Source: Malacoraja senta
Lineage: Eukaryota
NCBI GenBank assembly: GCA_038087875.1
Contig: CM075992.1
Location: 12,340,001-12,404,000, forward strand
DNA length: 64,000 nt
Direction of reading: 5' to 3'
Shown: one piece after another, positions 11,011-49,400 of the stretch
How positions within the stretch are numbered: the stretch's first letter is position 1
Layout of the letters: every line of letters starts with the position of its first letter
Translations under genes and position numbers: made by a program
The notes under the pieces: model-generated
Told to the model about the DNA's origin: nothing
The model's input: the letters and a program-made list of their open reading frames with translations, nothing else
Databases searched by the model: none

Positions 11011-13224
11011 GGCATAGCAAGGGGATAGGATGGAGTCGAGGTGAAAATAATTTCAGTGGGACAGGTGCAGGCTGAAACAATGGGTCTGCCAGAGCAGTCG
11101 TGTTCCCACTCCCTCATTTTTACTATAGACATTCAGTCATTCTACTCCTCCATCCCCCACCAGGAAGGCCTTAAAGCCCTCTGTTTCTTCCTCGAACACA
11201 GAACCATCCAATTTCCCTCTACTAACACTCTATTCCACCTAGCAGAGCTGGTCCTCACCCTTAACAACTTCTCCTTCGACTCCTCCCACTTCTATCAAGT
11301 CCAAGGAGTAACTAGGACCACCCCCATGGGCCCCAGTTATGCCTGCCTCTTTGTAGGGTACATTGAACAATCCCTATTCCAGGCTTACACGGGCCTTATC
11401 CCCGAACTCTGTCTCCGTTATATTGATGACTGAATCAGTGTTACCTCCTGCACCCATGCCGAACTCATGGACTTCATTAACTTCACCACCAATTTCCATC
11501 CTGCACTCAAATTCACTTGGACCATCTCCGACACCTCCCTCCGCTTTCTTGATCTCACCATCTCCATCACAGGAAGTAGACTATCAACTGATGTCTATTA
11601 CAAAGCCACTGACTCCCACAACTATCTCGACTACACTTCTTCCCAGCCTATTTCCTGCAAAGACTCTATCCCCTACTCCCAATTCCTCCATCTATGCATC
11701 TGTGCCCAAGATGAGGTACTCCATACTAGGATATCTGAGGTCCTCATTCTTTAGGGAACGGGGGTTCCCCATCCATCATAGATGAGACATCCACTCGTGT
11801 CTCCTTGGTACCCCGCATCTCCGCCCTTGCTCCCCATCCCCCTAGTCACAACAGAGACAGATTCCCCCTAGTCTTTACCTTTCACCCCATCAACCGTCGC
11901 AGACAACATATAATCCTTCTAAATTGTTGCCACCTCCAAGGGGATCCTACACCCGTCACATCTTCCCATCTCCACCCCTTTCCACCTTCTGCAGAGACCA
12001 TTCTCTCTGCAACTCCCTGGTTAACTCATCACTTCTCACCCAAACCACCCCCTCCCCATGTACCTTCCCCTGCAACCGCAGAAGATGCAACACCTGTCCC
12101 TATACCTCCTCCCTTGACTGAGTCCAGGGACCCCGACAGTCCTTTCAGGTTAGGCAGAGGTTTACTTGCATCTCCTCCAACCTCATCTACTGTATCCATT
12201 GTTCAAGATGTGGACTCTTATACATCTACGAGACCAAATGTAGACTGGGCGATCATTTGACTGAACCTACCTGAACTTCCGGTTGCTAAACATTTTAATT
12301 CCCCTTCCCATTCCCACACAGACCTTTCTGTCCGAGGTCTCCACCGTTGCCAGAGTGAGGCTAAATGCAACTTGGAGAAACAGCATCTCATATTTCGCTT
12401 GGGCAACCTAGTGGTAGGAATATTGATTTCTCTAGCTTCAAGTAACCCCGGCAATCCTATTCTCTCTACCCCTCCCGCACCAAAGTCGCACCAGCTTCTC
12501 ATTTTCACCCAACAAACAGCTAACAATGGCATGTTTCCTTTATCATTGTTACTTTTTTGCATATCTTTCGTTCATCCTTCTTTATCTCTCTACATCATAC
12601 TGTAGTCTATAACTCTTGTTTCCCTTATACCTAACTAGTCTGAAAAAGGGTCTCAACCCAAAACGTCACCCATTCCTTCTCTCCCGAGATGCTGCCTGTC
12701 CCGCAGTGTTACTCCAGCTTTTTGTGTCTATCTTTGGTTTAAACCAGCATACAGTATGCAGTTCCTTCAGATGCATTAAACTCCATAAGCATTTCCTCAG
12801 CTCACTTGCTCAGCTGATCAAGACGGTTATAATTATCGATAACCATCTTCACTCTCTATGATATCACCCTCTTTAGTGTCTTTTGTAAGCTGACTGATCA
12901 TGCATTCTGCATTCTCAACCGAATCTTTGATATCAACCACAAATAGCACCAATCGCTGTGGCACAGAACTAGTCACAGGCTTCGAGTCCAAAAAACACCC
13001 ATACCTTCATCAACCTCAATTCTGTATGCAGTTGGACTCTCCCTAAATTCCAGGCAACTTTCAAGATTTTCAAACTTTCAAATGTTCTTATTAAATCTTT
13101 TCCCCTTCACCTTAAACCCATGTCCTCTGGTCCTCGATTCACCTGCTCTTGGCAGGAGGTTCTGTGCATTTACGCGATCTATTCCTCTCATGATTTTATG
13201 CACCATTTTATACACCACGTTTAC

Positions 13225-26564: not shown

Positions 26565-26720
26565 AAAACGGAGATGAGGAAAAGCTTTTTCACCCAGAGA
26601 GTTGTCAGTCTGTAGAATTCTCTGCCTCAGAAGGCAGTGGAGGCCAATTCTCTGGATGCTTTCAAGAGAGAGTTCGATAGAGCTCTTCAAGATAGCGGAG
26701 TCAAGAGATATGGGGAGAAG

Positions 26721-26849
26721 TGTTTAAGAAGGAACTGCAGATGCTGGAAAATCGAAGGTAGACAAAAGTGCTGGAGAAACTCAGCGGGTGCAGCAGCATC
26801 CGTGGAGCGAAGGAAATAGGCAATGTTTCGGGCCGAAACCCTTCTTCAG
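26721..26849 (-). mobile_element. 129-bp Penelope pLTR-derived insertion beginning at a hammerhead core
   Basis: Minus strand CTGAAGAAGGGTTTCGGCCCGAAAC...CCTTCTTAAACA; flanks GGGGAGAAG and GGAGAGAAG (degenerate TSD). Confidence 0.75.
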
Positions 26850-27225
26850 GGAGAGAAGGCAGGAACGGGGTACTGATTGTGGATGATAAGCCTTAATAAC
26901 AGTGAATGGCAGTACTGTCTCGAAGGGCCAAATGGCCTACTCCTGTACCTATTGCCTATTGTATTTTATAATACTGCTTTTTTGGCGTGGGGGGTCCCAG
27001 TGTGGGAGAGAGGAATCTCACCTCTGTGTGTGGTGTCATAGTCTGGGGAAGTGTGCGATCTCACCTCTGTGTGTGGTGTCACAGTCTGGGGAAGTGTGCG
27101 ATCTCACCTCTAAGTGAGGAAGTGAGCTATTCTGTGTACTGTAGGTTCTGTCCCAGAATACAGCTTTGCCTGAACCCCTAAAAACTCTTTTTCCTCTGAT
27201 TTTAATTCCCTGCTTACATTTCCAG

Positions 27226-27275: not shown

Positions 27276-30033
27276 GTGAGTAGTTATTAACAAGAGTGTG
27301 GTGGGGGGTGCACTGTGCGCTGTGTACAATTACTGGATGTTGGTTATGTATTTGACTGTGTGTTAAAGCATCATCTGAATCCTCCTCAAATACCTCGAAT
27401 GATCTAGTGTCCACCATCCTCCGGAGTAGAGAATTCCAGCGATTCACCGACCTCTGTGAGAGGAAGCTCCTGTGTAGTTTTAAATGACCGCCCTCTTATC
27501 TTGTAACTATGTCCCCTCATTGGCACCTCTGCCTCTGCACATAGTTATAGAGATCTCCGACACAGAAACAGGCTCCCTGGTCCACCGCACTTATACAGGC
27601 CATCATGCTGAGTGACACTAATCCAACTTCCCGACATTAATTGCCGATCCCTCTGTGCCCTGTCGTTCAAATACCTATCAAGATGCCTCTTAAAGATTGT
27701 TACTGTTCCTGCCTCCACCACCTCATCTAGCATCTACCAACAACACTTTGTGTGGACAAATTATCACTGATCTCTATAAACCACTCCCTTCCCATCTTCA
27801 ACTGATACACTTTGATCTTGGACACCCGTACGGTGGGAAATGGCCATCGACTCTGTCTGTGCCTCTCATAATTTTATATAACAATATCACAGTCATTTCT
27901 CAGCCAACTTTGCTCCAGGGAAAACAGACCCTGTCCAATCTCACATTATAACTCAAGCTGGCCAATCCCAGGCAACATCCTTGTGAATCATTTTCACCCT
28001 TCTCTTCACATTTACCCTCTCATCCCCCCCTCACGATCGTGCTTTATAATAAGATCACCCCTCATTCTCAATTCCACAGACTGGAGACCAAATATCTTGC
28101 CTGATAGCTGAATTCTCCCATCAAGAATGAATCAAGTGAATCTCTCTGGACTGCCGGTATATCCTTACTTTAATAGAGGAACCAAAACTGTCCCCAGTAA
28201 CTAGGTTTGCCCCCCCCCCCCCAGCACCCTGTCCACTTGTACCACTACTCCACATTTATAAACTCCAAGCCCTGTGTGGTCTCAATGACCCATAGAGCCG
28301 ACAGCACGGAAACAGGCCCTTCGGCCCACCTGACCCGTGCGAACCAAGATGTTGCATCTAAGATAGTTCCATTTGCCTGCATTTGGCCCACATCTCTTGA
28401 AACAATTCATATCAATGTATCTGCCCAAGTGTCTTTTACATGATGTTATCATGCCTGCCTCAACCATCTCCCCTGACAACTCATTCCATTTACCCAGCAC
28501 AGCTGAGTGAATATGTTGCTCCTCAGCTTCATATTAAATCTTGCCTCTCTCACCTTAAAGCTATGTCCCCTGGGTAACAGGCACTGTGAATTCACCTTAT
28601 CTATTCCCCTCATGATTTATACACATTTATATTATCATCCCTCAGCCTCCTGTGCTCCAAGGAATAAAGTCCATTCTGGCCGAACCTCTCCCTATAGCTC
28701 AGCCCCTTGACTTCTGGCAACATCCTCCTAAATCTTCTTTGCACTCTTTCCAGCTTAATGGCATCCTTCCAATAGCAGGGTGACAATAAGTGAACATCCT
28801 ACTTCAAGTGCAGCCTCACCGATACGCTGCACAACTGTAACATGCCATAATACAGCAGCTAGCACCTATCAGCATTAGACTCTCATTTCCTCCCACACCC
28901 ATACGCTCATGGGTTAATAGTCTTCTGTAAACCAGTCCTAGTGCAGGAAAGTGGCACAAACACCAAAGGGTAGTGGGTAGGATCATAGAGAGAGAGTGGG
29001 TGAGTTGCAGGGCTAAAGGGGAAATAAGGAGCTGAGGATTGGGACTGATGGGATTGTCCCCCGTGAGCTATCATGGGCACGATGGGTGGAATGGCCTCCT
29101 ACTTGGTGCGGTAAGTGGATGTTAAACTGAGTTGATGCCGTTTATTCCACAATTTACAATGAAAGACCACACGTGGAGCACAGAGAGCTTGTGTGGACTC
29201 CAGGGCAGCGGAAGGGGAAGTGTGGAACTCCACAATGAAGAAAGTTCAAGAAACTCCCATTGTCTGCTGTCCCAGTTGGAAATCCCCACGGTTCAGCATC
29301 TGGCTGTATAGATGATGATCGCCGGCCTCACCCCCGCATTCACCGAGACCCCCGTTCCCAGAGCCCCCACTCACTGAGACCCCCATTCCAGAGCTCCATG
29401 TCATTTGCCAGGACCTCCTTTTCCAGAGCTCCTTCGCTCCCAGTTGTTGGAACCCCGGATCTCATGTTCCATTTCATATTTCGGGCCATAAACTCCTGCT
29501 TGCTCCCACTTTCCCGGCGCCGGTGTAACAATACTGATTTCCGGTGCTATCTGTGTGGAGTTTGCATGTTCTCCCCGTGACTGTGTGGGTTTCCCCGGGT
29601 GTTCCAGTTTCTCCCACATTGCTGAAACTTGCTGGGACGTTAATCAGCTGCTGTAAAATGCCCCAGTGTGGGTTAATTGGCAGTTGATGGGATTGTGTCA
29701 ATAGTCAATAGACAATTGGTGCAGGAATAGTCCATTCGGCCCTTCGAGCCAGTATTGCCATTCACTGTGATCATGGCTGATCATCCACAATCAGTACCAC
29801 GTTCCTGCCTTTTCCCCATATCCCTTGACTCTGCTATCTTCCATAGCTCTATCTAACTCTCTCTTGAAAGCATCCAGAGAATTGGCCTCCACTGTCTTCT
29901 GAGGCAGAGAATTCCACAGATTCACAACTCTCTAGGTGAAAATGTTTTTCCTCATCTCCGTTCTAAATAGCCTAACCCTTATTCTTAAACTGTGGCCCCT
30001 GGTTCTGGACTCCCCCAACATCGGAAACATGTT

Positions 30034-30237
30034 GTTAAAGAAGGAACTGCAGATGCTGGAAAATCGAAGGTACACAAAAATGCTGGAGAAACTCAGCGGG
30101 TGCAGCAGCATCTTATGGAGCGAAGGAAATAGGTAACGTTTCGGGCCGACGAGGGTTTCGGCCCGAAACGTTACCTATTTCCTTCGCTCCATAAGATGCT
30201 GCTGCACCCGCTGAGTTTCTCCAGCATTTTTGTGTAC
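30034..30237. mobile_element. Palindromic Penelope pLTR-derived insertion with 15-bp TSD
   Basis: TSD CATCGGAAACATGTT at 30019-30033 and 30238-30252; perfect 81-bp inverted arms (30069-30149 and 30158-30238); absent at the equivalent site ~44091-44105. Confidence 0.88.
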
Positions 30238-30559
30238 CATCGGAAACATGTTTCCTGCCCTAGCATGTCCAATCCCTTAATAACCTATATGTTTCATTAA
30301 GATGCCCTCTCATCCTTCAAAATTACAGTGTATACAAGCCCAGCCGTTCCATTCTTTCAACATATGACAGTCCCGCCATCCCGGGAATTAACCTCATGAA
30401 CCTACACTGCACTCCCTCAATAGCAAGAATGTCCTTCCTCAAATTCTAGCTATTGAGGAACTGCAGCGTATGTTCACGAGGTTAATTCCCGGGATGGCGG
30501 GACTGTCATATTTTGAAGGAATGGACTGGGCTTGTATACACTTTAATTTAGAAGGATGA

Positions 30560-30980
30560 TACAAATATAGGGTGCAAAAGTACTTTAAAAAAAATTGAGG
30601 TCAGGTAAGGGGGGATGCTTGTTGAAGAGTTGGTATGTCCCATTTACGTAATGCTCATAAAAATATTTGTTTCTCTCTTTTTCCTCTTCCTCTTTCTCTT
30701 TCTTTTCTAGGGTCTATTTCTTAACTCTTTTTCTTTTGTTTTTAATTTTGCTCTTATAGGGTCTTCGTCCTTTTTTGTTGTCACATTTTCTACACTTTCA
30801 CGTTTTCCTTCACTTTCTTCTTTCTTTCAATCTTTTCTTTTTCTAGTGTAAAAAATAAATGGAGTACATTAATTGTAAGAAGACATAAGTGACGAGTACT
30901 AATGTATGTGGTTGTAATGTAATGTACTTCAAATAAATAAAAATAAAAAAATAATACAATTTAAAAAATAAATTAAAAAA
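30560..30980 (+). mobile_element. L1 3' UTR/poly-A stub with 15-bp TSD
   Basis: AATTTAGAAGGATGA at 30545-30559 and 30981-30995; T-rich UTR, AATAAA, A-rich tail. Also in copy 2 (~44413-44833). Confidence 0.75.
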
Positions 30981-33900
30981 AATTTAGAAGGATGAGAGGG
31001 TATCTTATTGAAACATATAAAATTATTAAGGGACTGGAGACGCTAGAGGCAGGAAACATATTCCTGATGTTAGGGGAGTCCAGAACCAGGGGGCCACAGT
31101 TTAAGAATAAGGGGTAGGCCATTGAGAACGGAGATGAGGAAAAGCTTTTTCACCCAGAGAGTTGTCAGTCTGTAGAATTTTCTGCCTCAGAAGGCAGCGG
31201 AGGCCAATTCTCTGGATGCTTTCAAGAGAGAGTTCGATAGAGCTCTTCAAGATAGCGGAGTCAAGAGATATGGGGAGAAGTGTTTAAGAAGGAACTGCAG
31301 ATGCAGCAGCATCCATGGAGCGAAGGAAATAGGCAACGTTTCGGGCTGAAACCCTTCTTCAGGGGGAGATAACCTTAATAACCTATATGTTTCATTAAGA
31401 TCCCCTCTCATCCTTAAAATTACTGTGTATACGAGCCCAGACGTTCCATTCTTTCAACATATGACAGTCCCGCCATACCGGGAATTAACCTCATGAACCT
31501 ACGCTGCACTCCCTCAATAGCAAGAAAGTCCTTCCTCAAATTTCGAGCACCAAAACTGCTCACTAGGGCCCTGTACAACTGTAGAAGAACATCTTTGCTC
31601 CTATACTCAACTCATCTTGTTATGAAGGCCAACATGTCATTTGCTTTCTTCACTGCCTGCTGTACCTGCATGCTTACTTTCAGTGACTGATGAACAAGTG
31701 TGAATATGCATGGGTTTGGGTACTTGGGAAAATGGCAGATGTCTGTGAAACCTGCTTCACTGAGGCTGACATCACTTGCAGGGAGCTGGAGACCTATGTG
31801 ACATAGATGGCTCCAGGGAGTCTGAAGCCTGGGTAGGGGCTGCAGAAAGTATCTGCCCTTGTGACCTACATGTTGCCACAATGTCTGGGATTCTGCAGGT
31901 GCAGCAAAGCCCTGATGCTAAAGGCAAGCTTGTGGTTGGTTGGGGAGATGTTATGTCTCAACTATGTATTGGTACCTTCCCGCCGGTACTTGTGATTGGT
32001 CCAGAAGAGTGGCATCACCAAAGATGTTTCTTTATCTAATGGTAATGTTTCTTTACTTAATGGGAATGTTTTTCCCTGTGCTATGTGTTGAAACTATGTT
32101 ATGCATTGTTATAGGATTGGGCCAAAGAGTTGTCGTTCTATGTATTTTGCAGCCGGTATCAGTAATTGGTTTGTAGGTGCTGAGGACCAGTATTTAGCGG
32201 GTAGGAGGGTTCGAGGCCTCGGGGGGGGGGGGGTTTCAGGCCCCACCTGTGTGTGTTCGAGTACCATACAGTACTGGGTATTATCAGTGCTAAGGTAAAA
32301 TTGGCTGGAATACTTTAAAAATTAGCACTGAATTTTAGGACGCGTCTGTGATAATTCTAGGACTGTGATCCTAATTTTTTTTTCATTTTTGAAGCATCAG
32401 AAAATGGGTACAGATTATGTTACCATATCCAAGCTCATTTTTTCCAAATGTACATATCAAAACAGAACATTTGAGTATTATACAAACAATATGAATGGGC
32501 ATGTTTATAAAAACATTAAAAAATATATTTTAATAAACAAACAAATGAGGGGGGGAAAAAGTAAATAATAAAAATAACTAAATACATAATTAAAGTGCAG
32601 GTGACTACAGTACATAGGGAGCAGTTCAGTGCAATAATTCTTTGTGAAGACTCTTGTTTCTACAGCTTCTAACTCTCCTGTCTTCTATCTCTTACATAAT
32701 TTCATTAAAATGAATGGTTTAGAGTGTAGATAGGTTTGTGTTATGTGTCAATATTCAGCTGTGCAAGAAATGACATAAATGGTTGCCAGATTTTATTAAA
32801 TTGGTTGACTCTATCCTTTAGAACATATCTTATTCTTTCTAAATGTAATGTACTGGTCAAGTCATGAAGCCACATTCTGGAATTGGGAGCTGTTGTTGTT
32901 TTCCATGACATGAGCAGTGGTTTCTTTGCCGTAATGAGACAGTAGGAGTGGAATTGTCATTGAGCAGTTGTGAGTTGTCTTGATGTTTCAGATACCCCCA
33001 AGATGATTAATACGGGTTCTGGGTTTAATGGAATGTTAAGAATGTCTGAGATATTCTTAACTATATCAGACCAGAAAGAGGTGAGTTTAGGGCACGATAC
33101 AAAGTTATGAAAAAGAGTAGCATCTGAGGAGTGACATTTATCACAAGTAGGAGAAACATTTGGATATATACTGTGTATTTTTGCCTTGGAGTAGTGAAGT
33201 CTATGTATAATTTTGAACTATATGAGGCAGTGTCTAGCATTGGTTGAGCACCTATGTATAAGTTTGAGGCTTTCCTCCCATATTTCATCTGGTATTTGCA
33301 CATTTATGTATTTTCCCCGATTGATCTTATACTTGCTAGAGGATGGAGAAGATATTAATAGGACATCATACATATAGGAGATAAATTTGTCATCATATGG
33401 TGATGTTTTAAGGGAGTCATCTATTTGAGACTGCCTCTCAACTTCAAATCCTGACAGATGCTTTCGTATATAATCCCTGATTTGCAAGTATCTGAAGAAG
33501 TTACTATTTGGGAGATCAAATTTCTTTCGTAGCTGTGTGTAAAGGTGGCAAACGTACCATCGATATATAGGTCTCGGACACTGTGGATTCCTAATTCACT
33601 CCATGTAGAGGAAGTCTTATCTAAAATAGATGGTTTGAATGTGGGGTTGTTTGCTACGGACAAAGCGAGAGATATACTGTAGGTTTAAATCAAGGCAAGG
33701 CAAGGCAAGTTTATTTGTATAGCACCTTTCAACCACAAGGTAATTCAAAGTGCTTTACATAAAACATTTAAAGCATTTGAAAGAAACACATATAAAATGA
33801 CATTTAGATATAAAATGATTATTAGATTATTCTGATAATAATTACAAAATTAAAAGCAATCAAATAAAATATTTAAAATAGAATAAAACCAGGAATAGAA

Positions 33901-34437
33901 GTTACAGTGCAGTATAGATAATTAATAAATTGTATTGTTTACTGAAAGGCAGCGGCAAACAGAAAAGTCTTCAGTCTAGATTTCAAAGAGCTGAGAGTTG
34001 CAGCAGACCTGCAGTTTTCTGGGAGTTTGTTCCAGATATGTGGTGCATAAAAATTAAATGCTGCCTCTCCATGTTTAGTTCTGACTCTGGGGACACAGAG
34101 CAGACCTGTCCCAGACGATCTGAGAGGTCTGGGTGGTTCATAGCTAAGCAGAAGATCAGAAATGTATTTTGGCCCTAAACCATTCAGTGCTTTGTAAACC
34201 AACAGTAGTATTTTGAAATCAATTCTTTGACAGACAGGAAGCCAGTGTAAAGACCTCAGAACTGGAGTAATGTGATCTACTTTTTTGGTCTGAGTGAGGA
34301 CTCGAGCAGCAGCGTTCTGAATTAACTGCAGCTGTCTGATCGACTTTTTAGGGAGACCTGTAAAGACACTGTTACAGTAGTCGAGCCTGCTGAAGATAAA
34401 TGCATGGACAAGTTTTTCCAAATGCTGCGGAGACATA

Positions 34438-36054
34438 CAGTGGCTTGCCAAAGTTTTCATACCCCTTGAACGTTTCCACATTTTGTCATGTTACAACCAC
34501 AAACGTAAATGTATTTTATTGGGATTTTATGTGATAGACCAACACAAAGTGGTGCATAATTGTGAAGTGGAAGGAAAATGATACATGGTTTTCAAATTTT
34601 TTTACAAATAAAAAACTGAAAAGTGTCACGTGCAAAAGTATTCAGCCCCCCTGAGTCAATACTTTGTAGAACCACCTTTCGCTGCACTTACAGCTGCAAG
34701 TCTTTTGGGGTATGTCTCTACCAGCTTTGCACATCTAGAGACTGAAATTGTTGCCCATTCTTCTTTGCAAAATAGCTCAAGCTCAGTCAGATTGGATGGA
34801 GAGCGTCTGTGAACAGCAATTTTCAAGTCTTGCCAGAGATTCTCAATTGGATTTAGGTCTGGACTTTGACTGGGCCATTCTAACACATGAATATTCTTTG
34901 ATCTAAACCATTCCATTGTAGCTCTGGCTGTATGTTTAGGGTCGTTGTCCTGCTGGAAGGTGAACCTCCGCCCCAGTCTCAAGTCTTTTGCAGACTCTAA
35001 CAGGTTTTCTTCCAAGATTGCCCTGTATTTGTCTCCATCCATCTTCCCATCAACTCTGACCAGCTTCCCTGTCCCTGCTGAAGAAAAGCATCCCCACAGC
35101 ATGATGCTGCCACCACCATGTTTCACAGTGGGGATGGTGTGTTCAGGGCGATGTGCAGTGTTAGGTTTCCGCCACACATAGCGTTTTGCATTTAGGCCCA
35201 AAACTTCAATTTTGGTCTCATCTGACCAGAGCACCTTCCTCCACATGTTTGCTGTGTCCCCAACATGGCTTGTGGCAAACTGCAAATGGGACTTCTTATG
35301 GCTTTTTTTCAACAATGGCTTTCTTCTTGCCACTCTTCCATAAAGGCCCGATTTGTGGAGTGCACGACTAATAGTTGTCCCGTGGACAGATTCTCCCACC
35401 TGAGCTGTGGATCTCTGCAGCTCCTCCAGAGTTACCATGGCCCTCTTGACTGCTTCTCTGATCAATGCTCTCCTTGCCCAGCCTGTCAGTTTAGGTGGAC
35501 GGCCATGTCTTGGTAGGTTTGCAGTTGTACCATACTCTTTCCATTTTCGGATGATGGATTGAACAGTGCTCCGTGAGATGTTCAAAGCTTGGGATATTTG
35601 TTTATAACCTAACCCTGCTTTAAACTTCTCCACAACTTTATCCCTGACCTGTCTGGTGTGTTCCTTGGGCTTCATGATGCTGTTTGTGCACTAATGTTCT
35701 CTACCAAACCTCTGAGGCCTTCACAGAACAGCTGTATTTATACTGAGATTATATTACACACAAGTGGACTCTATTTACTAATTAGGTGACTTCTGAAGGC
35801 AATTGGTTGCACTGGATTTTATTTAGGGGTATCAGAGTAAAGGGGGCTGAATACTTTTGCACGCGACACTTTTCAGTTTTTTATTTGTAAAAAAATTTGA
35901 AAAACATGTATCATTTTCCTTCCACTTCACAATTATGCGCCACTTTGTGTTGGTCTATCACATAAAATCCCAATAAAATACATTTACGTTTGTGGTTGTA
36001 ATGTGACAAAATGTGGAAAAGTTCAAGGGGTATGAATACTTTTGCAAGCCACTG
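34438..36054 (-). mobile_element. Full-length Tc1 transposon (1617 bp) with ~213-bp IR-DR TIRs and TA TSD
   Basis: TA|CAGTGGCTTG...CAAGCCACTG|TA; removing it restores the L2 frame (IKGL|MSPQH); inner repeat TGCAAAAGTATTCA. Confidence 0.96.
34656..35675 (-). CDS. Tc1 transposase, 339 aa, intact DD34E
   Basis: Paired-like HTH, GRPPK, WSDE, FQQDND, SPDLNPIE (34 residues between the second D and E). Confidence 0.96.
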   Translation of the reverse strand: MKPKEHTRQVRDKVVEKFKAGLGYKQISQALNISRSTVQSIIRKWKEYGTTANLPRHGRPPKLTGWARRALIREAVKRAMVTLEELQRSTAQVGESVHGTTISRALHKSGLYGRVARRKPLLKKSHKKSHLQFATSHVGDTANMWRKVLWSDETKIEVLGLNAKRYVWRKPNTAHRPEHTIPTVKHGGGSIMLWGCFSSAGTGKLVRVDGKMDGDKYRAILEENLLESAKDLRLGRRFTFQQDNDPKHTARATMEWFRSKNIHVLEWPSQSPDLNPIENLWQDLKIAVHRRSPSNLTELELFCKEEWATISVSRCAKLVETYPKRLAAVSAAKGGSTKY

Positions 36055-37103
36055 TAAGTCCCTTAATCCTTGATATATGCCTCAGGTGATAGTAGGTTGA
36101 CTTTGTGACTGTTTTTATGTGGCTGTTGAAGTTCAGGTCTGAGTCCATGACTACTCCTAAGTTTCTGGCTTGGTTTGTTGTTTTTAGCATTACCATTTGA
36201 AGCTGGGTGCTAACTTTTAATTGTTCTTCCTTGGCTCCAAAAACAATTATTTCAGTTTTTTCTTTGTTTAATTGGAGAAAATTCTGGTTCATCCAATTGT
36301 TGATTTGCTCAATGCATCTACTCAGTGCTTGTATTGGACTATAGTCTCCTGGTGATATTGTTATGTAGATTTGTGTGTCGTCTGCGTAACTATGGTAACA
36401 TATTTTGGTTTTTCATGATCTGAGCCAGTGGAAGCATGTAGATGTTAAACAGAAGAGGCCCCAGAATGGAGCCCTGGGGAACTCCACATGTAATTTTTGC
36501 ACGCTCAGATGTGTAATTACCTATAGACACAAAGTAGTCCCTGTCCTTCAAGTAGGATTCAAACCATGGTACATTTTAACATTTTAAGTTCAAAATGGGT
36601 TCTGATTTGCTTCCATATATGTATCAAATTGTGTATAACAGGATTAAATCCATAATATGATTTATCAATTGAAGTAGGAGCTAATAGGATGGGACCTATT
36701 GAGTATGGGTGACAATCTTCTTGTTCTATTTTTAGCCAATTCAGAGGGATGTTTGAGGTGTCAAGCCAGAAAGCAAAGGACTTGATGGCAGATGCCCAGT
36801 AAAAGAATCTGAAATTTGGAAGAGCAAGCCCGCCCTTTTGATTCGCAGAGCTGATTTTTGTTTATCCTATGAGTTTTGTAATTCCACAAGAAAGGTATTA
36901 TTATCGAATTTAATCTCTTTAAAAATGTTTTTGTAAGAAAAATAGGAATGTTCTGAATTTGATATCGTAGATGGGGTAAGAAGATCATTTTAATGTTATT
37001 CACTCTTCCGAGTAAGGAAATTGGAAGAGTTTTCCAGAGTTGGATTTTGCTTTTTAGGTTTTCTAATAAGGGAAGGAAATTGGCCTGTAGCAGGGAAGAG
37101 TAA

Positions 37104-37718
37104 CAGCTCTGTCTCATGGTGTTGCGGTCATCGGCGGTGAAGCGCGGCGTCGCCGGTAGAGGGGACCGCACGGCAACGGTGAGAGCGCCGAGCCTATGCC
37201 ACGGGAGCGCCGCACGGGTGCTGCGCGGGGGCCGAGTGATTTAAGTACGGCTGGTCCCACAGGCTTGCGGTAAGTTAAAAAAAAAGGGCGGGCCGACTGC
37301 GATGACGTCATTTTGGATCTGCGGGGCTGTGGCGGCGGCCGTGCTGATCGCGGCGCTGTGGCGGCGGCCGTGCCGCACACGTGTCTCACTGGCGGAGGCT
37401 GTGGCGGCGGCTGTGGCGGCGGTCGTGCCTCACTGGCGGAGGCTGTGGCGGTGCAAGTTCGACGCACGGCGCTCGTGCCACACTGGCGGTGGCTGTGGCG
37501 GCGGTCGTGCCGCACTCGTGCCTCACTGGCAGAGGCTGTGCGGTAGGAAACGTTTTTTAAACAGTGTTGGTTTTATTTTAGCACCGTGCGGTGTTGGGAA
37601 CAACGCCGCACGGCCCCGGAATTGTGCGTTTGACCGAGTGCGCGGTCTATGGCGGCCTAGGAGCGGTAGATTCTTCCTGTTTCGCCGCCAATGACCGCAG
37701 ACTCGCGAGACAGGCCTT
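37104..37718. mobile_element. Harbinger-like MITE (615 bp, GC-rich internal repeats)
   Basis: TAA on both flanks; imperfect TIR (CTGTCTC..TGCGGTCATYGGCGGYGAA); removal restores L1 ..AVTKCYSSLL. Copy 2 at 50956-51558 is 12 bp shorter. Confidence 0.7.
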
Positions 37719-39606
37719 TAACACTTTGTAACCGCAATTCCTAGATAGGTAAATGTATCTGTTGTTACTCTGAAAGGAAAATTCTCCAATGTATCTGAGG
37801 GGATGGTATGAACTGGGAACAGTATACTTTTATTCCAGTTAATACTGTAGCCTGAAAATGTACCAAACAGATTAATTTTTTCCAGTATCGCTGGAATAGT
37901 GGTTTGAGATTCCTTTGTGTACAGGAGGATATAATCCGCGTACAAAGATATTTTATTTGTAGTCTCTTTCGTGTCGTAACCATGAATACGTGGATCTAAT
38001 TGAATACTCTGAGCAAAAGGTTCTATAGCAAGGGCAAATATTAATGCTGATAGGGGGCAACCCTGTCTTGTTCCCCTGAACAAATTAAAGGGAGATGAGA
38101 GCGTTTGGTTTGTGAGGGTTCGTGCTGTCGGATTTTTATACAGAAGCTTAATCCATTCCAAAAAATTGTATCCAAAGTTAAATCTCTTGAGGAGCTCGAA
38201 TAAGTATGGCCATTCAATCTGGTCAAATGCTTTTTCCGCGTCAAACGTTAGTCTAGCCAAGTCGTTGTTTCCTTCTCTTTTTGTGTACATGATATTAAAC
38301 AGACTTCTCAAGTTAACGGTGGATTGTCTATTAGGTATGAACACCGTTTGATCTTTGTGTATTAATTTACTTATTAATGGGCTTAATCTATTGGCTATGA
38401 TTTTAGCAAATAGCTTGCCATCTATATTTAGCAGTGAGATCGGATGGTATGAACTTACTTCTTGGGTATCTTTTCCTTTCTTATGAATCACTCTAATTGT
38501 TGCTTCAGTTAGTGTTGGTGGTAGGGCTCCGTCTGATTGTGCTTGTCTATACATTCTATATATATACAGTGTCAGAGTATCATTACATTTCCTGTATAAT
38601 TCACTTGGAAGTCCATCTGGACCTGGTGCTTTAACAGTTTTAAGAGATGAGATGGCTTCTTGAATCTCTATAACACGGAGATCAAAATTAAGACCATTGC
38701 ATTCTTCTTCACTTAATTTAGGGAGATTGCATCTATTAAGAAAGTCATTCATGACAGGGGAGTTTGCGGTGCATCTGGGCGTATATAGGCTGGAATAAAA
38801 CTCAAACAATCTATCATTTATTTGTTTGGATTTTGTTAGCGCTGTTCCATTGTTACTCTTCATTTTATGTATTGTTCGGTCAGTCTCCATTTTTCTTAGC
38901 TGTCGTGCCAATAATTTGTGCAGTCTGTCTCCGAATTCGAAGTATTTTCGTTTGGTGCATAAAAACGCTTTGCTTATTTTTGCAGAGAGTAATTGATTAT
39001 ATGATATCTCAAATTTGCAATTTTCCTGTGTAAATCAGAGGAGGGATCGAGTGCGTTATCCCTGTCCAATTGTTGGATCTGTTTTTCTAATTCTTCTATT
39101 TTTATTTTACCCCGTTCCCAAAGCCCCCACTCACTGAAACCCCGTTCCAGAGCTCCATGCCATTTGCCGGGACCTCCTTTCCCAGGGCTCCCTCCCTCCC
39201 AGTTGCTGGGACCACAGATCTCATGCTCCATATCATATTCCAGGCCGCAGTTTCCTGTTCGCTCCCACTCTTTGTGTAACAATACGGATTTCCGGTGCTA
39301 TCTGTGTGGAGTTTGCATGTTCTCTCCATGACTGTGTGGGTTTCCCCGGGTGCTCCAGTTTCTCCCACTTCACAGAAACTTGCTGGGACGTTAATCAGCA
39401 GCTGTAAAATGCCGCATTGTGGGTTAATGGCAGTTGATGTGACGGTGTCAATAGACAATAGACAATAGGTGCAGGAGTAGGCCATTCGACCCTTCAAGCT
39501 AGCAGCGCCATTCACTGTGATCATGGCTGATCATCCACAATCAGTACCCCATTCCTGCCTCCTCCCCCTATCCCTTGACTCCGCTATCTTCCACAGCTCT
39601 ATCTAA

Positions 39607-39879
39607 AAGCCCTGTCCCACAGTGCGAGTTGATTCCAAGAGTTCTCCCGAGTTTGCCCTGATATAAACTTGGAGATTTACGGTATTGGCCACTCATCGGT
39701 ACTCGGGGCTCCCGTGGACATTTTTCAACGAGTACCTGCTGTTAGCGGTACAAGCCGATAAGTGACGTCCCCGAGCTCCGAGGTGCCCGCTACGTTCATT
39801 CTCCGTGCTTACCATGAGTTTGATTTTTTTTTAAACTCGGGAGAGCACTTGAATGAACTCGCACCGTGGGACAGGGCTT
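39607..39879. mobile_element. Harbinger-like MITE (273 bp)
   Basis: TIR AAGCCCTGTCCCACRGTGCGAGTT (1 mismatch), TAA/TTA flanks; empty site in the paralog near 29850. Copy 2 at 53448-53720. Confidence 0.78.
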
Positions 39880-41089
39880 TTACTCTCTCTTGAAAGCATC
39901 CAGATAATTGGCCTCCATTGCCTTCTGAGGCAGAGAATTCCACAGATTCACAACTCTCTGGGTGAAAAAGTTTTTTCTCATCTCCATTCTAAACGGCCTA
40001 CCCCTTATTCTTAAAATGTGGCCCCTGGTTCTAGACTCCCCCAACATCGGGAACATGTTTCCTGCCCCTAGCGTGTCCAATCCCTTAATAATCTAAAATG
40101 TTTAATTAAGATAACCTCTCATCCTTCACAATTACAGTATGTATAAGCCCAGTCGCTCCATTCTTTCAACATATGACAGTTCCGCCATCCCGGGAATTAA
40201 CCTCATGAACCTACGCTGCACTCCCTCAATAGCAAGAATGTCCTTCCTCAAATTTCGAGCAGCAAAACTGCTCACTAGGGCCCTGTACAACTGTAGAAGA
40301 ACATCTTTGCTCCTATACTCAACTCCTCTTGTTATTAAGGCCAACATGCCATTCACTTTCTTCACTGCCTGCTGTACATGCATTCTTACTTTCAGTGACT
40401 AATGAACAAGTGTGAATATGCAAGTTTGAGTACTTGTGAAAATGGCAGATGTCTGTGAAACTGTGGAACTGTCAAACTGAGGGTGGCATCACTTGCAGGG
40501 AGCTGGAGACCCATGTCACATAGATGGCTCCAGGGAGTCTGAAGCCTGGGAAGGGGCTGCAGAAAGTATCTGCCCTTGTGACCTACATGGTGCCACAATG
40601 TCTGGGATTCTGCAGGTGCAGCAAAGCCTTGATGCTAAAGGCAAGCTTGTGGTTGGTTGGGGAGATGTTATGTCTCAACTATGTATTGGTACCTTAACTT
40701 GTGATTGGTCCAGAAGAGTGGCATCACCAAAGATGTTTCTTTATCTAATGGTAATGTTTCTTTCCTTAATGGAAATGTTTCTCCCTAAGTGCTATATGTT
40801 GAAACTATGTTATGTACTGTTATATGATTGGGCCAAAGAGTTGTCATTCTATGTATTTTGCAGCCAGTATCAGTAATTGGTTTGTAGGTGCTGAGGACCA
40901 GTATTTAGCGGGTAGGAGGATTCCAGGCCTAGGGGGGTTTGAGGCCCCGTCTGTGCGGGTTCGAGTACCAAACAGTACTGGGTATTATCAGTGCTAATGT
41001 AAAATTGGCTGGAATACTTTAAAAATTAGCACTGAATTGTTAGGACGCATCTGTGATAATTCTAGGACTGTGATCCTAATTTTTTTATG

Positions 41090-43000
41090 TAACTTTTGCG
41101 AATTCGAGGTATTCATATTCAGTGCTTTTGGTTATTCTTATACTTTAGTTGTTTGTTTCTGATCGTGTAATATAGAGACTTGCTTAAAATTGTGTAATTT
41201 ACTCTGCTACCGTAATTGTAATTTAAATTGTATGCTTATACTTTATATTCTGGTTTGCTTTTGCATTATAATTGTTAGTTGCATAATTTATTGATTAAGC
41301 GGTAATTGGCTCCACGGAAGGGGAATGTGTTTGCCTTCTGTCAAATTGAGCATTATCCTCGGAATGAGAACAATGTCATCGTTGAAGGCATCGTTGAATT
41401 TTTGTGTCGCTTTTCCACAATCATCATCATTCCATTGCATTGCTTTGGCGGTTCCAAGTTTCTCATTAACATGATCGGAGATCCTTTTTTCAACTCCAAT
41501 TTGTGTGGTGGTAATCCAGAGATCTCGAGTGAATCAAGGAATTCTGTTGGGAAATGAGTAGCATTAGTTCCCTCAGTGCCAGGGAAGTGTTTGATACATG
41601 TAGAATTGATGATTCTCATCGTATCGTTGTGCGGAACCAAGATACAATTGTCGGAGAATATTTCTGCGGGATTGTCAAACGTGGGATAGATGAAATCAAT
41701 ACAATCCTCCAGTGTTGTAGCTGATAGAACCATGTCTTGTGGCATTTCAATTTCTTCATCATTATTCTTTAAAATGTCGTCTTCTCCAACTTTCAACAAA
41801 AATTGAGAATATTCGTCTTCTCCCTCTCTCAATCGCATATTTGACTCCAATTGAAACTTGGTGAAAAGTCCCCACAAGTAGGATTTCTTGATACAGGAAT
41901 TTTCAATATCAGCATGATTTCCCCTTTTCACTACAAGAAAGAGATGTCCAAAATCGCCAAAACAAATGGTAAGAATGCCACCAACAGGTTTAGTGTTGGT
42001 GTATACATCTCGAAGAGATCTGTCCACCGCTTCAAAGCTCTCCCTGCTAATCATCAGGCACTCATCCCATGAGTTTCACTTGCCTCTTGAAACGTGATGT
42101 GTTAGAGTTCTTGTCAATTTTGCAGAATGTGTTTTTGGTCACTTGGATGGGTATCTTGAATCGAGAATGTGCAGTTCTTCCACCAGGCATTAATGTAGCT
42201 GCTATCCCAGAGGATGCGACAGCTATAGCAACATCACCTTGACCTCTAACTTTGGAGAGGATCAAATTGGTGATAAAGGTCTTCCCTGTTCCTCCTGGTG
42301 AATCAGTGAAAAACATTGAAGGAAGATTCCTTTTCAACAGTCGCACACCTGGTCATACACTGCTCTCTGCTCAGCATTCACTCGGAGACACGGTTTACAC
42401 TTGTCCCAGAACGTTGGCTTCAAAAATAACTGGATGATCTTCCACTCTGGCCAACCTTCCTTCTTTGCCATCTCCTATTGTTCCATGTGTAAAATCGGGA
42501 ACATCAGCGGAGTAGAGTGTTCATGCAATTGGCTCTCGAGAACACAATACCATGACTTCAGTTCTCGCCATATCTTCATTCCTCACTCGCTGAGTAGCAT
42601 TGACTATGATAACGACTAGTTGTTCTTGTGGTAGATGTACCTTGAGTCGAAAGACAGCGGGTTGTCTCTCATGAGTCGGAAATCTAAGGGTTGATGCTTC
42701 TGATGGACCAATGTATTTACTGCATTTTCCATCCTTCCAACATGAAGAGGTGTGGTTGCAGAACGGTCTATGAATCATCTGCTTGAGTACCAATACATGC
42801 AGCTCAGGATCTACTTGTGGGTCTGGTATTTCAGCTTGCACAAATCTGTCAAAATGTTTTGGTCCTGGCTTACTCGCTTTGTCAAGCCACAGCAGAGTGC
42901 AAATGAGGCAGAGCTATCTTCTGATATTCCATAGTGGAGACAAACGCTATACAGTTGCCAAAGAGGCCATGTGGTCCAGTGAGGTACTTAATGAATAGAA
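41090..43000 (-). pseudogene. Helitron Rep/PIF1-helicase remnants (copy 1, cut by the gap)
   Basis: AEIPDP..MIH, PGGTGKT, ASSGIAATL..GRTAHSRFKIP, GDF, GLPPHKLELKKGSPIMLMRNL. Confidence 0.9.
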
Positions 43001-43248
43001 TAGTGGCGGCACTGCCCTAGCAGCTGCGGCTCGCCTGCAGTCCGTCTGTCTTTTTCTTTTTGTTGTTGTTTTCTTTTGTCCTGTTTTAGTTAATTTTAGT
43101 TTGTTAGGTTGTGTATGTGTGGGGGGGGGGTTGGGAGAAACATGTTTTTGGTTTCTTCCTTCGGGGGGATGCGACCTTTTCTTGTCGTATCCCCCATCTC
43201 CGTCTCCGTCTGTGCTGAGGCCTAATGGCGGAGCTGGCGGCCTCCAAC

Positions 43249-43448
43249 NNNNNNNNNNNNNNNNNNNNNNNNNNNNNNNNNNNNNNNNNNNNNNNNNNNN
43301 NNNNNNNNNNNNNNNNNNNNNNNNNNNNNNNNNNNNNNNNNNNNNNNNNNNNNNNNNNNNNNNNNNNNNNNNNNNNNNNNNNNNNNNNNNNNNNNNNNNN
43401 NNNNNNNNNNNNNNNNNNNNNNNNNNNNNNNNNNNNNNNNNNNNNNNN
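43249..43448. other. Assembly gap (200 N)
   Basis: Run of N between the two duplicate copies. Confidence 1.
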
Positions 43449-46400
43449 AGACCCCCATTCCAGAGCTCCATGTCATTTGCCGGGACCTCCTTTCCCAGAG
43501 CTCCTTCGCTCCCAGTTGTTGGAACCCCGGATCTCATGTTCCATTTCATATTTCGGGCCATAAACTCCTGCTTGCTCCCACTTTCCCGGCGCCGGTGTAA
43601 CAATACTGATTTCCGGTGCTATCTGTGTGGAGTTTGCATGTTCTCCCCGTGACTGTGTGGGTTTCCCCGGGTGTTCCAGTTTCTCCCACATTGCTGAAAC
43701 TTGCTGGGACGTTAATCAGCTGCTGTAAAATGCCCCAGTGTGGGTTAATTGGCAGTTGATGGGATTGTGTCAATAGTCAATAGACAATTGGTGCAGGAAT
43801 AGTCCATTCGGCCCTTCGAGCCAGTATTGCCATTCACTGTGATCATGGCTGATCATCCACAATCAGTACCACATTCCTGCCTCTTCCCCATATCCCTTGA
43901 CTCTGCTATCTTCCATAGCTCTATCTAACTCTCTCTTGAAAGCATCCAGAGAATTGGCCTCCACTGTCTTCTGAGGCAGAGAATTCCACAGATTCACAAC
44001 TCTCTAGGTGAAAATGTTTTTCCTCATCTCCGTTCTAAATAGCCTAACCCTTATTCTTAAACTGTGGCCCCTGGTTCTGGACTCCCCCAACATCGGAAAC
44101 ATGTTTCCTGCCCTAGCATGTCCAATCCCTTAATAACCTATATGTTTCATTAAGATGCCCTCTCATCCTTCAAAATTACAGTGTATACAAGCCCAGCCGT
44201 TCCATTCTTTCAACATATGACAGTCCCGCCATCCCGGGAATTAACCTCATGAACCTACACTGCACTCCCTCAATAGCAAGAATGTCCTTCCTCAAATTCT
44301 AGCTATTGAGGAACTGCAGCGTATGTTCACGAGGTTAATTCCCGGGATGGCGGGACTGTCATATTTTGAAGGAATGGACTGGGCTTGTATACACTTTAAT
44401 TTAGAAGGATGATACAAATATAGGGTGCAAAAGTACTTAAAAAAAAATTGAGGTCAGGTAAGGGGGGATGCTTGTTGAAGAGTTGGTATGTCCCATTTAC
44501 GTAATGCTCATAAAAATATTTGTTTCTCTCTTTTTCCTCTTCCTCTTTCTCTTTCTTTTCTAGGGTCTATTTCTTAACTCTTTTTCTTTTGTTTTTAATT
44601 TTGCTCTTATAGGGTCTTCGTCCTTTTTTGTTGTCACATTTTCTACACTTTCACGTTTTCCTTCACTTTCTTCTTTCTTTCAATCTTTTCTTTTTCTAGT
44701 GTAAAAAATAAATGGAGTACATTAATTGTAAGAAGACATAAGTGACGAGTACTAATGTATGTGGTTGTAATGTAATGTACTTCAAATAAATAAAAATAAA
44801 AAAATAATACAATTTAAAAAATAAATTAAAAAAAATTTAGAAGGATGAGAGGGTATCTTATTGAAACATATAAAATTATTAAGGGACTGGAGACGCTAGA
44901 GGCAGGAAACATATTCCCGATGTTAGGGGAGTCCAGAACCAGGGGCCACAGTTTAAGAATAAGGGGTAGGCCATTGAGAACGGAGATGAGGAAAAGCTTT
45001 TTCACCCAGAGAGTTGTCAGTCTGTAGAATTTTCTGCCTCAGAAGGCAGCGGAGGCCAATTCTCTGGATGCTTTCAAGAGAGAGTTCGATAGAGCTCTTC
45101 AAGATAGCGGAGTCAAGAGATATGGGGAGAAGTGTTTAAGAAGGAACTGCAGATGCAGCAGCATCCATGGAGCGAAGGAAATAGGCAACGTTTCGGGCTG
45201 AAACCCTTCTTCAGGGGGAGATAACCTTAATAACCTATATGTTTCATTAAGATCCCCTCTCATCCTTAAAATTACTGTGTATACGAGCCCAGACGTTCCA
45301 TTCTTTCAACATATGACAGTCCCGCCATACCGGGAATTAACCTCATGAACCTACGCTGCACTCCCTCAATAGCAAGAAAGTCCTTCCTCAAATTTCGAGC
45401 ACCAAAACTGCTCACTAGGGCCCTGTACAACTGTAGAAGAACATCTTTGCTCCTATACTCAACTCATCTTGTTATGAAGGCCAACATGTCATTTGCTTTC
45501 TTCACTGCCTGCTGTACCTGCATGCTTACTTTCAGTGACTGATGAACAAGTGTGAATATGCATGGGTTTGGGTACTTGGGAAAATGGCAGATGTCTGTGA
45601 AACCTGCTTCACTGAGGCTGACATCACTTGCAGGGAGCTGGAGACCTATGTGACATAGATGGCTCCAGGGAGTCTGAAGCCTGGGTAGGGGCTGCAGAAA
45701 GTATCTGCCCTTGTGACCTACATGTTGCCACAATGTCTGGGATTCTGCAGGTGCAGCAAAGCCCTGATGCTAAAGGCAAGCTTGTGGTTGGTTGGGGAGA
45801 TGTTATGTCTCAACTATGTATTGGTACCTTCCCGCCGGTACTTGTGATTGGTCCAGAAGAGTGGCATCACCAAAGATGTTTCTTTATCTAATGGTAATGT
45901 TTCTTTACTTAATGGGAATGTTTTTCCCTGTGCTATGTGTTGAAACTATGTTATGCATTGTTATAGGATTGGGCCAAAGAGTTGTCGTTCTATGTATTTT
46001 GCAGCCGGTATCAGTAATTGGTTTGTAGGTGCTGAGGACCAGTATTTAGCGGGTAGGAGGGTTCGAGGCCTCAGGGGGGGGGGGGTTTCAGGCCCCACCT
46101 GTGCGTGTTCGAGTACCATACAGTACTGGGTATTATCAGTGCTAAGGTAAAATTGGCTGGAATACTTTAAAAATTAGCACTGAATTTTAGGACGCGTCTG
46201 TGATAATTCTAGGACTGTGATCCTAATTTTTTTTTCATTTTTGAAGCATCAGAAAATGGGTACAGATTATGTTACCATATCCAAGCTCATTTTTTCCAAA
46301 TGTACATATCAAAACAGAACATTTGAGTATTATACAAACAATATGAACGGGCATGTTTATAAAAACATTAAAAAATATATTTTAATAAACAAACAAATGA

Positions 46401-49400
46401 GGGGGGGAAAAAGTAAATAATAAAAATAACTAAATACATAATTAAAGTGCAGGTGACTACAGTACATAGGGAGCAGTTCAGTGCAATAATTCTTTGTGAA
46501 GACTCTTGTTTCTACAGCTTCTAACTCTCCTGTCTTCTATCTCTTACATAATTTCATTAAAATGAATGGTTTAGAGTGTAGATAGGTTTGTGTTATGTGT
46601 CAATATTCAGCTGTGCAAGAAATGACATAAATGGTTGCCAGATTTTATTAAATTGGTTGACTCTATCCTTTAGAACATATCTTATTCTTTCTAAATGTAA
46701 TGTACTGGTCAAGTCATGAAGCCACATTCTGGAATTGGGAGCTGTTGTTGTTTTCCATGACATGAGCAGTGGTTTCTTTGCCGTAATGAGACAGTAGGAG
46801 TGGAATTGTCATTGAGCAGTTGTGAGTTGTCTTGATGTTTCAGATACCCCCAAGATGATTAATACGGGTTCTGGGTTTAATGGAATGTTAAGAATGTCTG
46901 AGATATTCTTAACTATATCAGACCAGAAAGAGGTGAGTTTAGGGCACGATACAAAGTTATGAAAAAGAGTAGCATCTGAGGAGTGACATTTATCACAAGT
47001 AGGAGAAACATTTGGATATATACTGTGTATTTTTGCCTTGGAGTAGTGAAGTCTATGTATAATTTTGAACTATATGAGGCAGTGTCTAGCATTGGTTGAG
47101 CACCTATGTATAAGTTTGAGGCTTTCCTCCCATATTTCATCTGGTATTTGCACATTTATGTATTTTCACCGATTGATCTTATACTTGCTAGAGGATGGAG
47201 AAGATATTAATAGGACATCATACATATAGGAGATAAATTTGTCATCATATGGTGATGTTTTAAGGGAGTCATCTATTTGAGACTGCCTCTCAACTTCAAA
47301 TCCTGACAGATGCTTTCGTATATAATCCCTGATTTGCAAGTATCTGAAGAAGTTACTATTTGGGAGATCAAATTTCTTTCGTAGCTGTGTGTAAAGGTGG
47401 CAAACGTACCATCGATATATAGGTCTCGGACACTGTGGATTCCTAATTCACTCCATGTAGAGGAAGTCTTATCTAAAATAGATGGTTTGAATGTGGGGTT
47501 GTTTGCTACGGACAAAGCGAGAGATATACTGTAGGTTTAAATCAAGGCAAGGCAAGGCAAGTTTATTTGTATAGCACCTTTCAACCACAAGGTAATTCAA
47601 AGTGCTTTACATAAAACATTTAAAGCATTTGAAAGAAACACATATAAAATGACATTTAGATATAAAATGATTATTAGATTATTCTGATAATAATTACAAA
47701 ATTAAAAGCAATCAAATAAAATATTTAAAATAGAATAAAACCAGGAATAGAAGTTACAGTGCAGTATAGATAATTAATAAATTGTATTGTTTACTGAAAG
47801 GCAGCGGCAAACAGAAAAGTCTTCAGTCTAGATTTCAAAGAGCTGAGAGTTGCAGCAGACCTGCAGTTTTCTGGGAGTTTGTTCCAGATATGTGGTGCAT
47901 AAAAATTAAATGCTGCCTCTCCATGTTTAGTTCTGACTCTGGGGACACAGAGCAGACCTGTCCCAGACGATCTGAGAGGTCTGGGTGGTTCATAGCTAAG
48001 CAGAAGATCAGAAATGTATTTTGGCCCTAAACCATTCAGTGCTTTGTAAACCAACAGTAGTATTTTGAAATCAATTCTTTGACAGACAGGAAGCCAGTGT
48101 AAAGACCTCAGAACTGGAGTAATGTGATCTACTTTTTTGGTCTGAGTGAGGACTCGAGCAACAGCGTTCTGAATTAACTGCAGCTGTCTGATCGACTTTT
48201 TAGGGAGACCTGTAAAGACACTGTTACAGTAGTCGAGCCTGCTGAAGATAAATGCATGGACAAGTTTTTCCAAATGCTGCGGAGACATACAGTGGCTTGC
48301 CAAAGTTTTCATACCCCTTGAACGTTTCCACATTTTGTCATGTTACAACCACAAACGTAAATGTATTTTATTGGGATTTTATGTGATAGACCAACACAAA
48401 GTGGTGCATAATTGTGAAGTGGAAGGAAAATGATACATGGTTTTCAAATTTTTTTACAAATAAAAAACTGAAAAGTGTCACGTGCAAAAGTATTCAGCCC
48501 CCCTGAGTCAATACTTTGTAGAACCACCTTTCGCTGCACTTACAGCTGCAAGTCTTTTGGGGTATGTCTCTACCAGCTTTGCACATCTAGAGACTGAAAT
48601 TGTTGCCCATTCTTCTTTGCAAAATAGCTCAAGCTCAGTCAGATTGGATGGAGAGCGTCTGTGAACAGCAATTTTCAAGTCTTGCCAGAGATTCTCAATT
48701 GGATTTAGGTCTGGACTTTGACTGGGCCATTCTAACACATGAATATTCTTTGATCTAAACCATTCCATTGTAGCTCTGGCTGTATGTTTAGGGTCGTTGT
48801 CCTGCTGGAAGGTGAACCTCCGCCCCAGTCTCAAGTCTTTTGCAGACTCTAACAGGTTTTCTTCCAAGATTGCCCTGTATTTGTCTCCATCCATCTTCCC
48901 ATCAACTCTGACCAGCTTCCCTGTCCCTGCTGAAGAAAAGCATCCCCACAGCATGATGCTGCCACCACCATGTTTCACAGTGGGGATGGTGTGTTCAGGG
49001 CGATGTGCAGTGTTAGGTTTCCGCCACACATAGCGTTTTGCATTTAGGCCCAAAACTTCAATTTTGGTCTCATCTGACCAGAGCACCTTCCTCCACATGT
49101 TTGCTGTGTCCCCAACATGGTTTGTGGCAAACTGCAAATGGGACTTCTTATGGCTTTTTTTCAACAATGGCTTTCTTCTTGCCACTCTTCCATAAAGGCC
49201 CGATTTGTGGAGTGCACGACTAATAGTTGTCCCGTGGACAGATTCTCCCACCTGAGCTGTGGATCTCTGCAGCTCCTCCAGAGTTACCATGGCCCTCTTG
49301 ACTGCTTCTCTGATCAATGCTCTCCTTGCCCAGCCTGTCAGTTTAGGTGGACGGCCATGTCTTGGTAGGTTTGCAGTTGTACCATACTCTTTCCATTTTC

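Follow-up and report, generated by a model that had tools for sequence, protein, structure and literature searches.

PLE insertions have been described as carrying an inverted, 5'-truncated pLTR and a TSD (PMC3846280, PMC8557442), and a tail of 30-40 nt is mentioned in several accounts (PMC3846280, PMC8557442, PMC11167929). The Pen2a and Pen2 copies of the rotifer Adineta vaga, as presented in PMC3846280 and in the scheme of PMC8557442, combine head-to-head pLTRs, a TSD and a pLTR hammerhead, are made in trans and, in the case of Pen2a, carry a tail of 31 nt at one end only. The purified Poseidon protein of the green anole Anolis carolinensis (PAc) was found to nick and extend both DNA strands and to start reverse transcription at two sites, the spacing of which corresponds to the tail (PMC11167929). 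Minimal hammerheads of PLEs have also been surveyed, with motif pairs lying 100-700 bp apart on opposite strands (PMC4209133). In green anole populations, 16,208 Penelope insertions were counted, thousands of which were polymorphic within clusters (PMC7561263).

Here, a 204-bp palindromic insertion was analyzed in a 64-kb window (the whole stretch of Malacoraja senta DNA under study), where it interrupts one of two nearly identical 13.6-kb copies. Small hairpins flanked by a TSD are also produced by MITEs (class II), which have symmetric terminal inverted repeats derived from DNA transposons and a fixed short TSD, whereas in L1 twin priming, with its two primers at staggered nicks, the inverted piece comes from further upstream and does not overlap the rest. 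The insert is similar to MITEs in being a small hairpin with a TSD, and would be similar to L1 twin priming in having primers at staggered nicks, with the difference that the same segment has been copied twice. No paper on palindromic mini-Penelope insertions in elasmobranchs was found in a search made mostly without subscription literature and Repbase; the insert itself is a clean, ordinary example of a known insertion shape.

Structure of the insert and its target site

The insert occupies positions 30034-30237 (204 bp) and is flanked by two identical 15-mers. The following features were distinguished:

30019-30033, plus strand: left TSD, 15 bp, within a decayed CR1-like LINE on the minus strand
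30034-30068, minus strand: 35-nt tail, a pLTR 3' extension on the left arm only, unpaired in the fold and alignable to the 3' terminus of the copy at 26722 in the window
30069-30149, minus strand: left arm, 3' part of the pLTR in minus-strand sense; its 5' truncation point falls in hammerhead loop II (from alignment)
30150-30157, plus strand: 8-nt centre (from alignment to the window pLTR copies)
30152-30237, plus strand: right arm, 3' part of the pLTR with sense on the plus strand, which begins just past the CTGAAGA core and extends as far as the tail boundary
30238-30252, plus strand: right TSD
44091-44105, plus strand: empty pre-insertion site, in the second copy

The whole structure is composed solely of pLTR 3' sequence plus the 15-bp TSD, and no ORF was found in the insert. 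Two perfect inverted arms of 81 bp (30069-30149 and 30158-30238) surround the 8-nt loop at 30150-30157; the 81st pair borrows the first base of the right TSD, so that 80 pairs lie within the insert and its length is divided as 204 = 35 + 81 + 8 + 80. The pLTR halves stand head to head, separated by two extra bases, and both arms are antisense (cDNA-like) when read inward from the 3' end of each flank. These two bases, which are absent from the family, open the centre and are followed by 6 nt of plus-strand pLTR (the 5' half of stem II) that are missing in the left arm; the arm-specific bases are the 35-nt tail on the left and these 6 nt of stem II on the right. In three to four runs from other samples, the family core was seen upstream of 30152 in loose contig ends. 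The predicted fold has an energy of -164.8 kcal/mol (z = -22.6), and none of 200 shuffled sequences was equally stable.

The TSD is identical at all 15 positions in 30019-30033, 30238-30252 and 44091-44105 and can be extended on neither side. Four of the first five bases of the right TSD match the continuation of the pLTR, a microhomology (I2 extends to 30242 at 99%). It was also observed that a 3-nt tandem repeat is present at two of the three junctions (30026-30036 and 30147-30152), and that the TSD terminates in an 8-bp palindrome, the end of which matches the 3' end of the element; primer slippage may be the source of both.

The host LINE, which we take to be a CR1 element from its motifs, is decayed and has its reading frames on the minus strand. 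A Pfam search with the CR1-like piece (a paralogue was tested) gave no match, and Atlas returned only unnamed clusters. All nine other CR1-like matches in the window, representing seven distinct loci, run uninterrupted across the site. Their seventh TSD position is G, in contrast to a locus-specific A that the empty site shares with both TSDs. The uninterrupted matches together with this shared A indicate that the filled site is derived and that 44091-44105 represents the pre-insertion state. Four sequencing runs, consisting of contigs of other samples from four organisms (in which contig depth does not represent copy number), all had G at the seventh TSD position in 93-95% of depth, and the empty form accounted for nine of the 15 joints listed, with 701 further joints beyond these. 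Among 21 sequencing runs compared with the window, the highest share of words was 0.54, and six RNA runs reached 0.05-0.07. Just to the right of the insertion, the LINE contains an inverted segment at 30310-30559 (and at 44163-44412) with 83-bp arms of 90% identity and a 12-nt spacer, which resembles a 5' inversion.

An earlier note on this DNA had claimed the 204-bp insert, its 81-bp arms, 8-nt loop and 15-bp TSD, as well as an empty site at about 44091-44105, and all of these were found again by sequence comparison. The junction sequence that it quoted is present as stated at 30146-30172, and the meeting of the arms in the hammerhead stem II region was borne out by pLTR alignment, which places it in stem/loop II. 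The unpaired extension at 30034-30068 (35 nt) and the 200-N gap at 43249-43448 are additional to that description.

Penelope origin and the hammerhead remnant

Several other Penelope sequences are present in the window:

26722-26851, minus strand: a copy with a single arm, from the young pLTR subfamily of the insert; it has the tail and the CTGAAGA core and sits in another CR1-like remnant
11113-12770, plus strand: broken Penelope RT and GIY-YIG remnant followed by an older-subfamily pLTR (tblastn; pLTR 73.7% identical to the arm over 114 bp)
5570-7345, minus strand: second broken Penelope RT and GIY-YIG remnant with an older pLTR downstream (pLTR 78.4% identical to the arm over 74 bp)

The two RT and GIY-YIG remnants were located by tblastn with the queries P0001 and P0004. 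Their broken reading frames extend over 11113-12341 (plus strand) and 7345-5874 (minus strand), with the older pLTRs about 300 bp downstream, which fixes the sense strand of the pLTR. Homologues carry RVT_1 and PF01541, the latter being the GIY-YIG family. Pfam assigned no family to the four Penelope ORF pieces of the window, and three of the eight proteins searched had a match (Tc1/mariner, PIF1 and RVT_1); the ORFs identified in the window are of repeat origin. Arm plus tail shares 93.1% identity over 116 bp with the one-armed copy at 26722-26836, and 74-83% with older pLTR copies in the window.

Judged by this similarity, the insert is Penelope-type pLTR sequence, and the Penelope origin proposed earlier is supported by the identity of the arm (73.7% and 78.4%) to the pLTRs downstream of the two remnants. 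A cartilaginous fish is the most probable source of the window on this evidence. The tie to coding Penelope sequence runs via the older subfamily only (74-78%): neither an intact Penelope ORF nor an ORF attached to the young pLTR subfamily was found in the window, where the remnants are broken. The putative Penelope/Poseidon clade was assigned from domain order and the hammerhead only. As in known PLE insertions, the insert is a head-to-head inverted, 5'-truncated copy with a 35-nt tail at one end only and a TSD with an empty site. The pLTR family was abundant in all four runs (contigs of other samples, four organisms), and pattern scans for related loci returned none in viral sequences, prokaryote genomes or a metagenome set; six loci from a further metagenome scan were all 20-22-nt chance matches and were dropped.

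A LINE-pLTR junction is common to 26567-26851 and 31127-31362 (98.9% identity over 178 bp), and the copy at 31282 has an internal deletion between short repeats. It seems that a LINE fragment and its Penelope stub were copied as a unit in these two regions.

Compared with the Adineta vaga cases, the insert shares head-to-head pLTRs, the TSD, the pLTR hammerhead and probable production in trans, as well as a tail at one end, which is 35 nt long here and 31 nt in Pen2a as described. The TSD is 15 bp here and 8-10 bp in the rotifer cases described, and an empty site is at hand for this locus. Unlike those cases, there is no ORF between the halves of the insert, since they have been cut to about 85-115 nt.

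The family pLTR contains a minimal hammerhead, with core, stem II and GAAA motif at 26849, 31362 and 45214. The one-armed copies in the window share the core, the extra base before stem II, the G-C first pair and the palindromic position 15.2-16.2 with the PLE minimal hammerheads described in PMC4209133; in the insert, by contrast, neither arm retains the core, and what is left of the motif is trapped in the duplex. A near-core had been proposed at the junction, where CCGACGA (30146-30152) is made up of three pieces: the last bases of the left arm, the two additional bases and the base with which the right arm opens. Relative to CUGANGA, it has C in place of U4, there is no extra base ahead of stem II, and helix I would open with a G-A pair. 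Forcing stem II and an open core cost 25.5 kcal/mol in the fold computation, corresponding to an ensemble fraction of about 1e-18, and no hammerhead match at E <= 1 was found in Rfam. The supposed near-core is an accident of the junction. Rfam gave seven matches at E <= 1, all below the gathering score; the four over the insert were microRNA-precursor models, which score any long hairpin, and they were rejected for this reason. The insert has no workable ribozyme, and its sole possible activity would be that of an 80-bp hairpin, given read-through transcription, which could serve as a Dicer substrate.

Routes of insertion

The insert is likely to be dead and non-coding, the product of a Penelope/Poseidon-type RT and GIY-YIG enzyme of a cartilaginous fish that acted in trans by two-nick priming, and to lie on one of the animal's two haplotypes. 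Considered as a route in itself, two nicks with two primings is the best supported reading, with a somewhat better than even chance of being correct. The enzyme would nick both strands 15 nt apart, and each 3'-OH would prime reverse transcription, one at the end of the tail and the other at an inner start site 35 nt further in, with help from short microhomology. The two cDNAs would reach about 116 and 86 nt before stopping in hammerhead stem/loop II, and their ends would then be joined with two extra bases, perhaps via a brief fold-back, while the TSD would result from gap filling. In vitro, initiation was reported at a site not homologous to the cut DNA (PMC11167929), so the microhomology need not matter. 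The two RT starts and the nicking and extension of both strands reported for PAc predict the asymmetry of the insert; however, PAc was studied in vitro, its ATT motif is not present at both cuts of the target here, and a finished head-to-head product does not appear in the examined portions of that report (PMC11167929).

Alternatively, a self-primed hairpin, formed by fold-back on the antisense template or on the first cDNA, could have made both arms, with an endonuclease trimming the tail from one of them. Self-priming on an antisense template has been proposed (PMC3846280), as has EN-mediated resolution of the tail (PMC8557442), and the perfect arms with their shared minority variants are consistent with such an origin. 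Two variants are common to both arms, T at 30134 (C accounts for 87-91% of the depth there in the four runs) and one additional T near 30113; two primings on a single template would explain them no better and no worse than if one arm had been copied from the other. When the minus strand is read through the centre, antisense sequence gives way to a 3-nt repeat capable of folding back. However, fold-back from the tail-bearing arm predicts an antisense plus-strand loop, whereas the loop is sense, and fold-back from the other arm needs a second priming or trimming to supply the tail; in addition, both strands were extended and the tail was bounded by RT start sites in the anole system (PMC11167929). 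The self-primed hairpin is regarded as rather unlikely, though it remains the strongest competitor of two primings.

A palindromic non-autonomous element (MITE-, SINE- or retrozyme-like) that was already formed and moved as a unit would account for the small size, the hairpin shape and the hammerhead remnant, and retrozymes have been proposed as non-autonomous PLE derivatives (10.64898/2026.07.22.740005). It is nevertheless very improbable: the insert is asymmetric, with a one-sided tail, and has no complete hammerhead, and its centre has no second copy in the window, is covered at less than 1% of arm depth in the runs and is replaced by other centres elsewhere. Depth at 30151 was 0.7-0.9% of that at 30134 in all four runs (contig depth, not copy number), and the left arm was joined to the right arm at other centres in four of the 15 joints listed, where the short side comprised only 18-33 letters at 90% likeness; these observations are supporting, not strong, evidence against a multiplied palindrome unit. 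The young copies at 26722 and 31282 have a single arm each. Depth over the tail was below that over the arms, which carries no weight as contig depth is not copy number, and none of the contig pieces listed from the four other-sample runs spans the insert, which has no bearing on its presence. The earlier label "MITE-like" holds for the shape only, as the arms consist of retroelement pLTR and, on one side, the inverted repeat stops 35 nt short of the end of the insert. A MITE was rejected because symmetric terminal inverted repeats of a DNA transposon are absent, and a non-LTR retrozyme because there are no tandem head-to-tail units with a complete type I hammerhead, only a single head-to-head unit without core. 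Palindromic chimeras of long reads do occur in assemblies (PMC9516828) and the site is near a mis-joined region, yet a sequencing or assembly artefact is hardly credible, since a fold-back read would mirror the flank and would not import a foreign repeat that has collinear flanks, a clean TSD of 15 bp and 35 nt of tail on one side only. The same features support a genuine insertion, as the earlier note had assumed.

Probable haplotypes, age and significance

The insert and its empty site lie in two long copies separated by a gap:

29377-43248: copy A
43249-43448, unstranded: assembly gap of 200 N, directly adjoining copy A on one side and copy B on the other
43449-57091: copy B

Over 13,643 bp, the copies are separated by 22 substitutions (0.16%), of which 15 are transitions; the remaining differences are four indels of 1-12 bp and the insert with its TSD (219 bp). 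Assembly gaps between duplicates are listed among the signs of false (heterotype) duplication, along with half read depth and discordant pairs (PMC9516828), and a gap of 200 N is found here; a nucleotide diversity of 0.002 has been reported for the epaulette shark (PMC10587355). Given the position of the gap exactly between the copies and a divergence near this shark value, copies A and B are most likely the two haplotypes of the animal left uncollapsed across the gap, and the insertion is probably heterozygous. On the other hand, the 13.6-kb repeat could be a true tandem duplication, in which the insertion occurred later in one paralogue and may be fixed. There are two copies in the assembly, and their transition-rich differences are what a young duplication would show; however, the gap coincides precisely with the end of copy A and the beginning of copy B, and their divergence is at the level of shark heterozygosity (PMC10587355), which makes a true duplication improbable. 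The earlier statement that the insert is present in one copy only is correct for the two assembled copies, which are most likely haplotypes as judged by the gap and the 0.16% divergence. A probable 13.6-kb false duplication is hence flagged in the assembly, and other seemingly duplicated features of the window are probably allelic because of it.

Such features include a Tc1/mariner element at 34432-36060 (and 48284-49912) with 219-bp terminal inverted repeats of 95.9% identity and an uninterrupted 344-aa stop-to-stop frame containing HTH and DDE domains, which looks intact and young from its sequence. A MITE-like element of 279 bp at 39604-39882 (and 53445-53723), possibly of Harbinger type, has 51-bp inverted ends (90%) and lies in a CR1-like remnant, and a PIF1 helicase fragment at 41353-42075 (and 55194-55916) is probably a Helitron remnant. 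Another element, at 57677-57992, has 87-bp inverted repeats (93%) about 140 bp apart.

With a clock of 7e-10 per site per generation (95% interval 1.4-14.1e-10), which was obtained in another species, the epaulette shark, 0.16% corresponds to 1.15 million generations (0.72-1.74 million from counting error; 0.6-5.8 million from the rate interval). This split time of the copies is an upper bound on the age of the insertion, not an estimate of it. Zero differences over the 95 arm and TSD pairs would have a probability of 0.86 even at the upper-bound age, so that the perfect arms and TSD add little on age. The insertion may be very young; the suggestion that a Penelope lineage was mobile very recently, and may still be, was overstated, as the only clock gives an upper bound, the remnants in the window are broken and they belong to the older subfamily.

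Taken alone, the insert is of little import, being one neutral repeat insertion within another repeat. Its value is that of a specimen, as the filled and empty alleles together reveal exactly where the nicks were made, where RT started on either side and what scar the joining left, and it addresses a problem of the whole class, the still unresolved PLE integration cycle. It hints that, in a group of vertebrates that evolves slowly, Penelope has moved since the haplotypes carried today arose. A tentative extension, whose chances are put at rather less than even, is that cartilaginous fishes harbor an actively segregating Penelope lineage, and that tiny palindromes are the in-vivo footprints of simultaneous priming at both nicks from two RT start sites. 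If this is true, palindromes with an empty allele could settle how the head-to-head repeats and one-sided tails of PLEs arise, by two primings or by an antisense self-primed hairpin, and perfect hairpins would be seeded in the genome that could feed small-RNA silencing.
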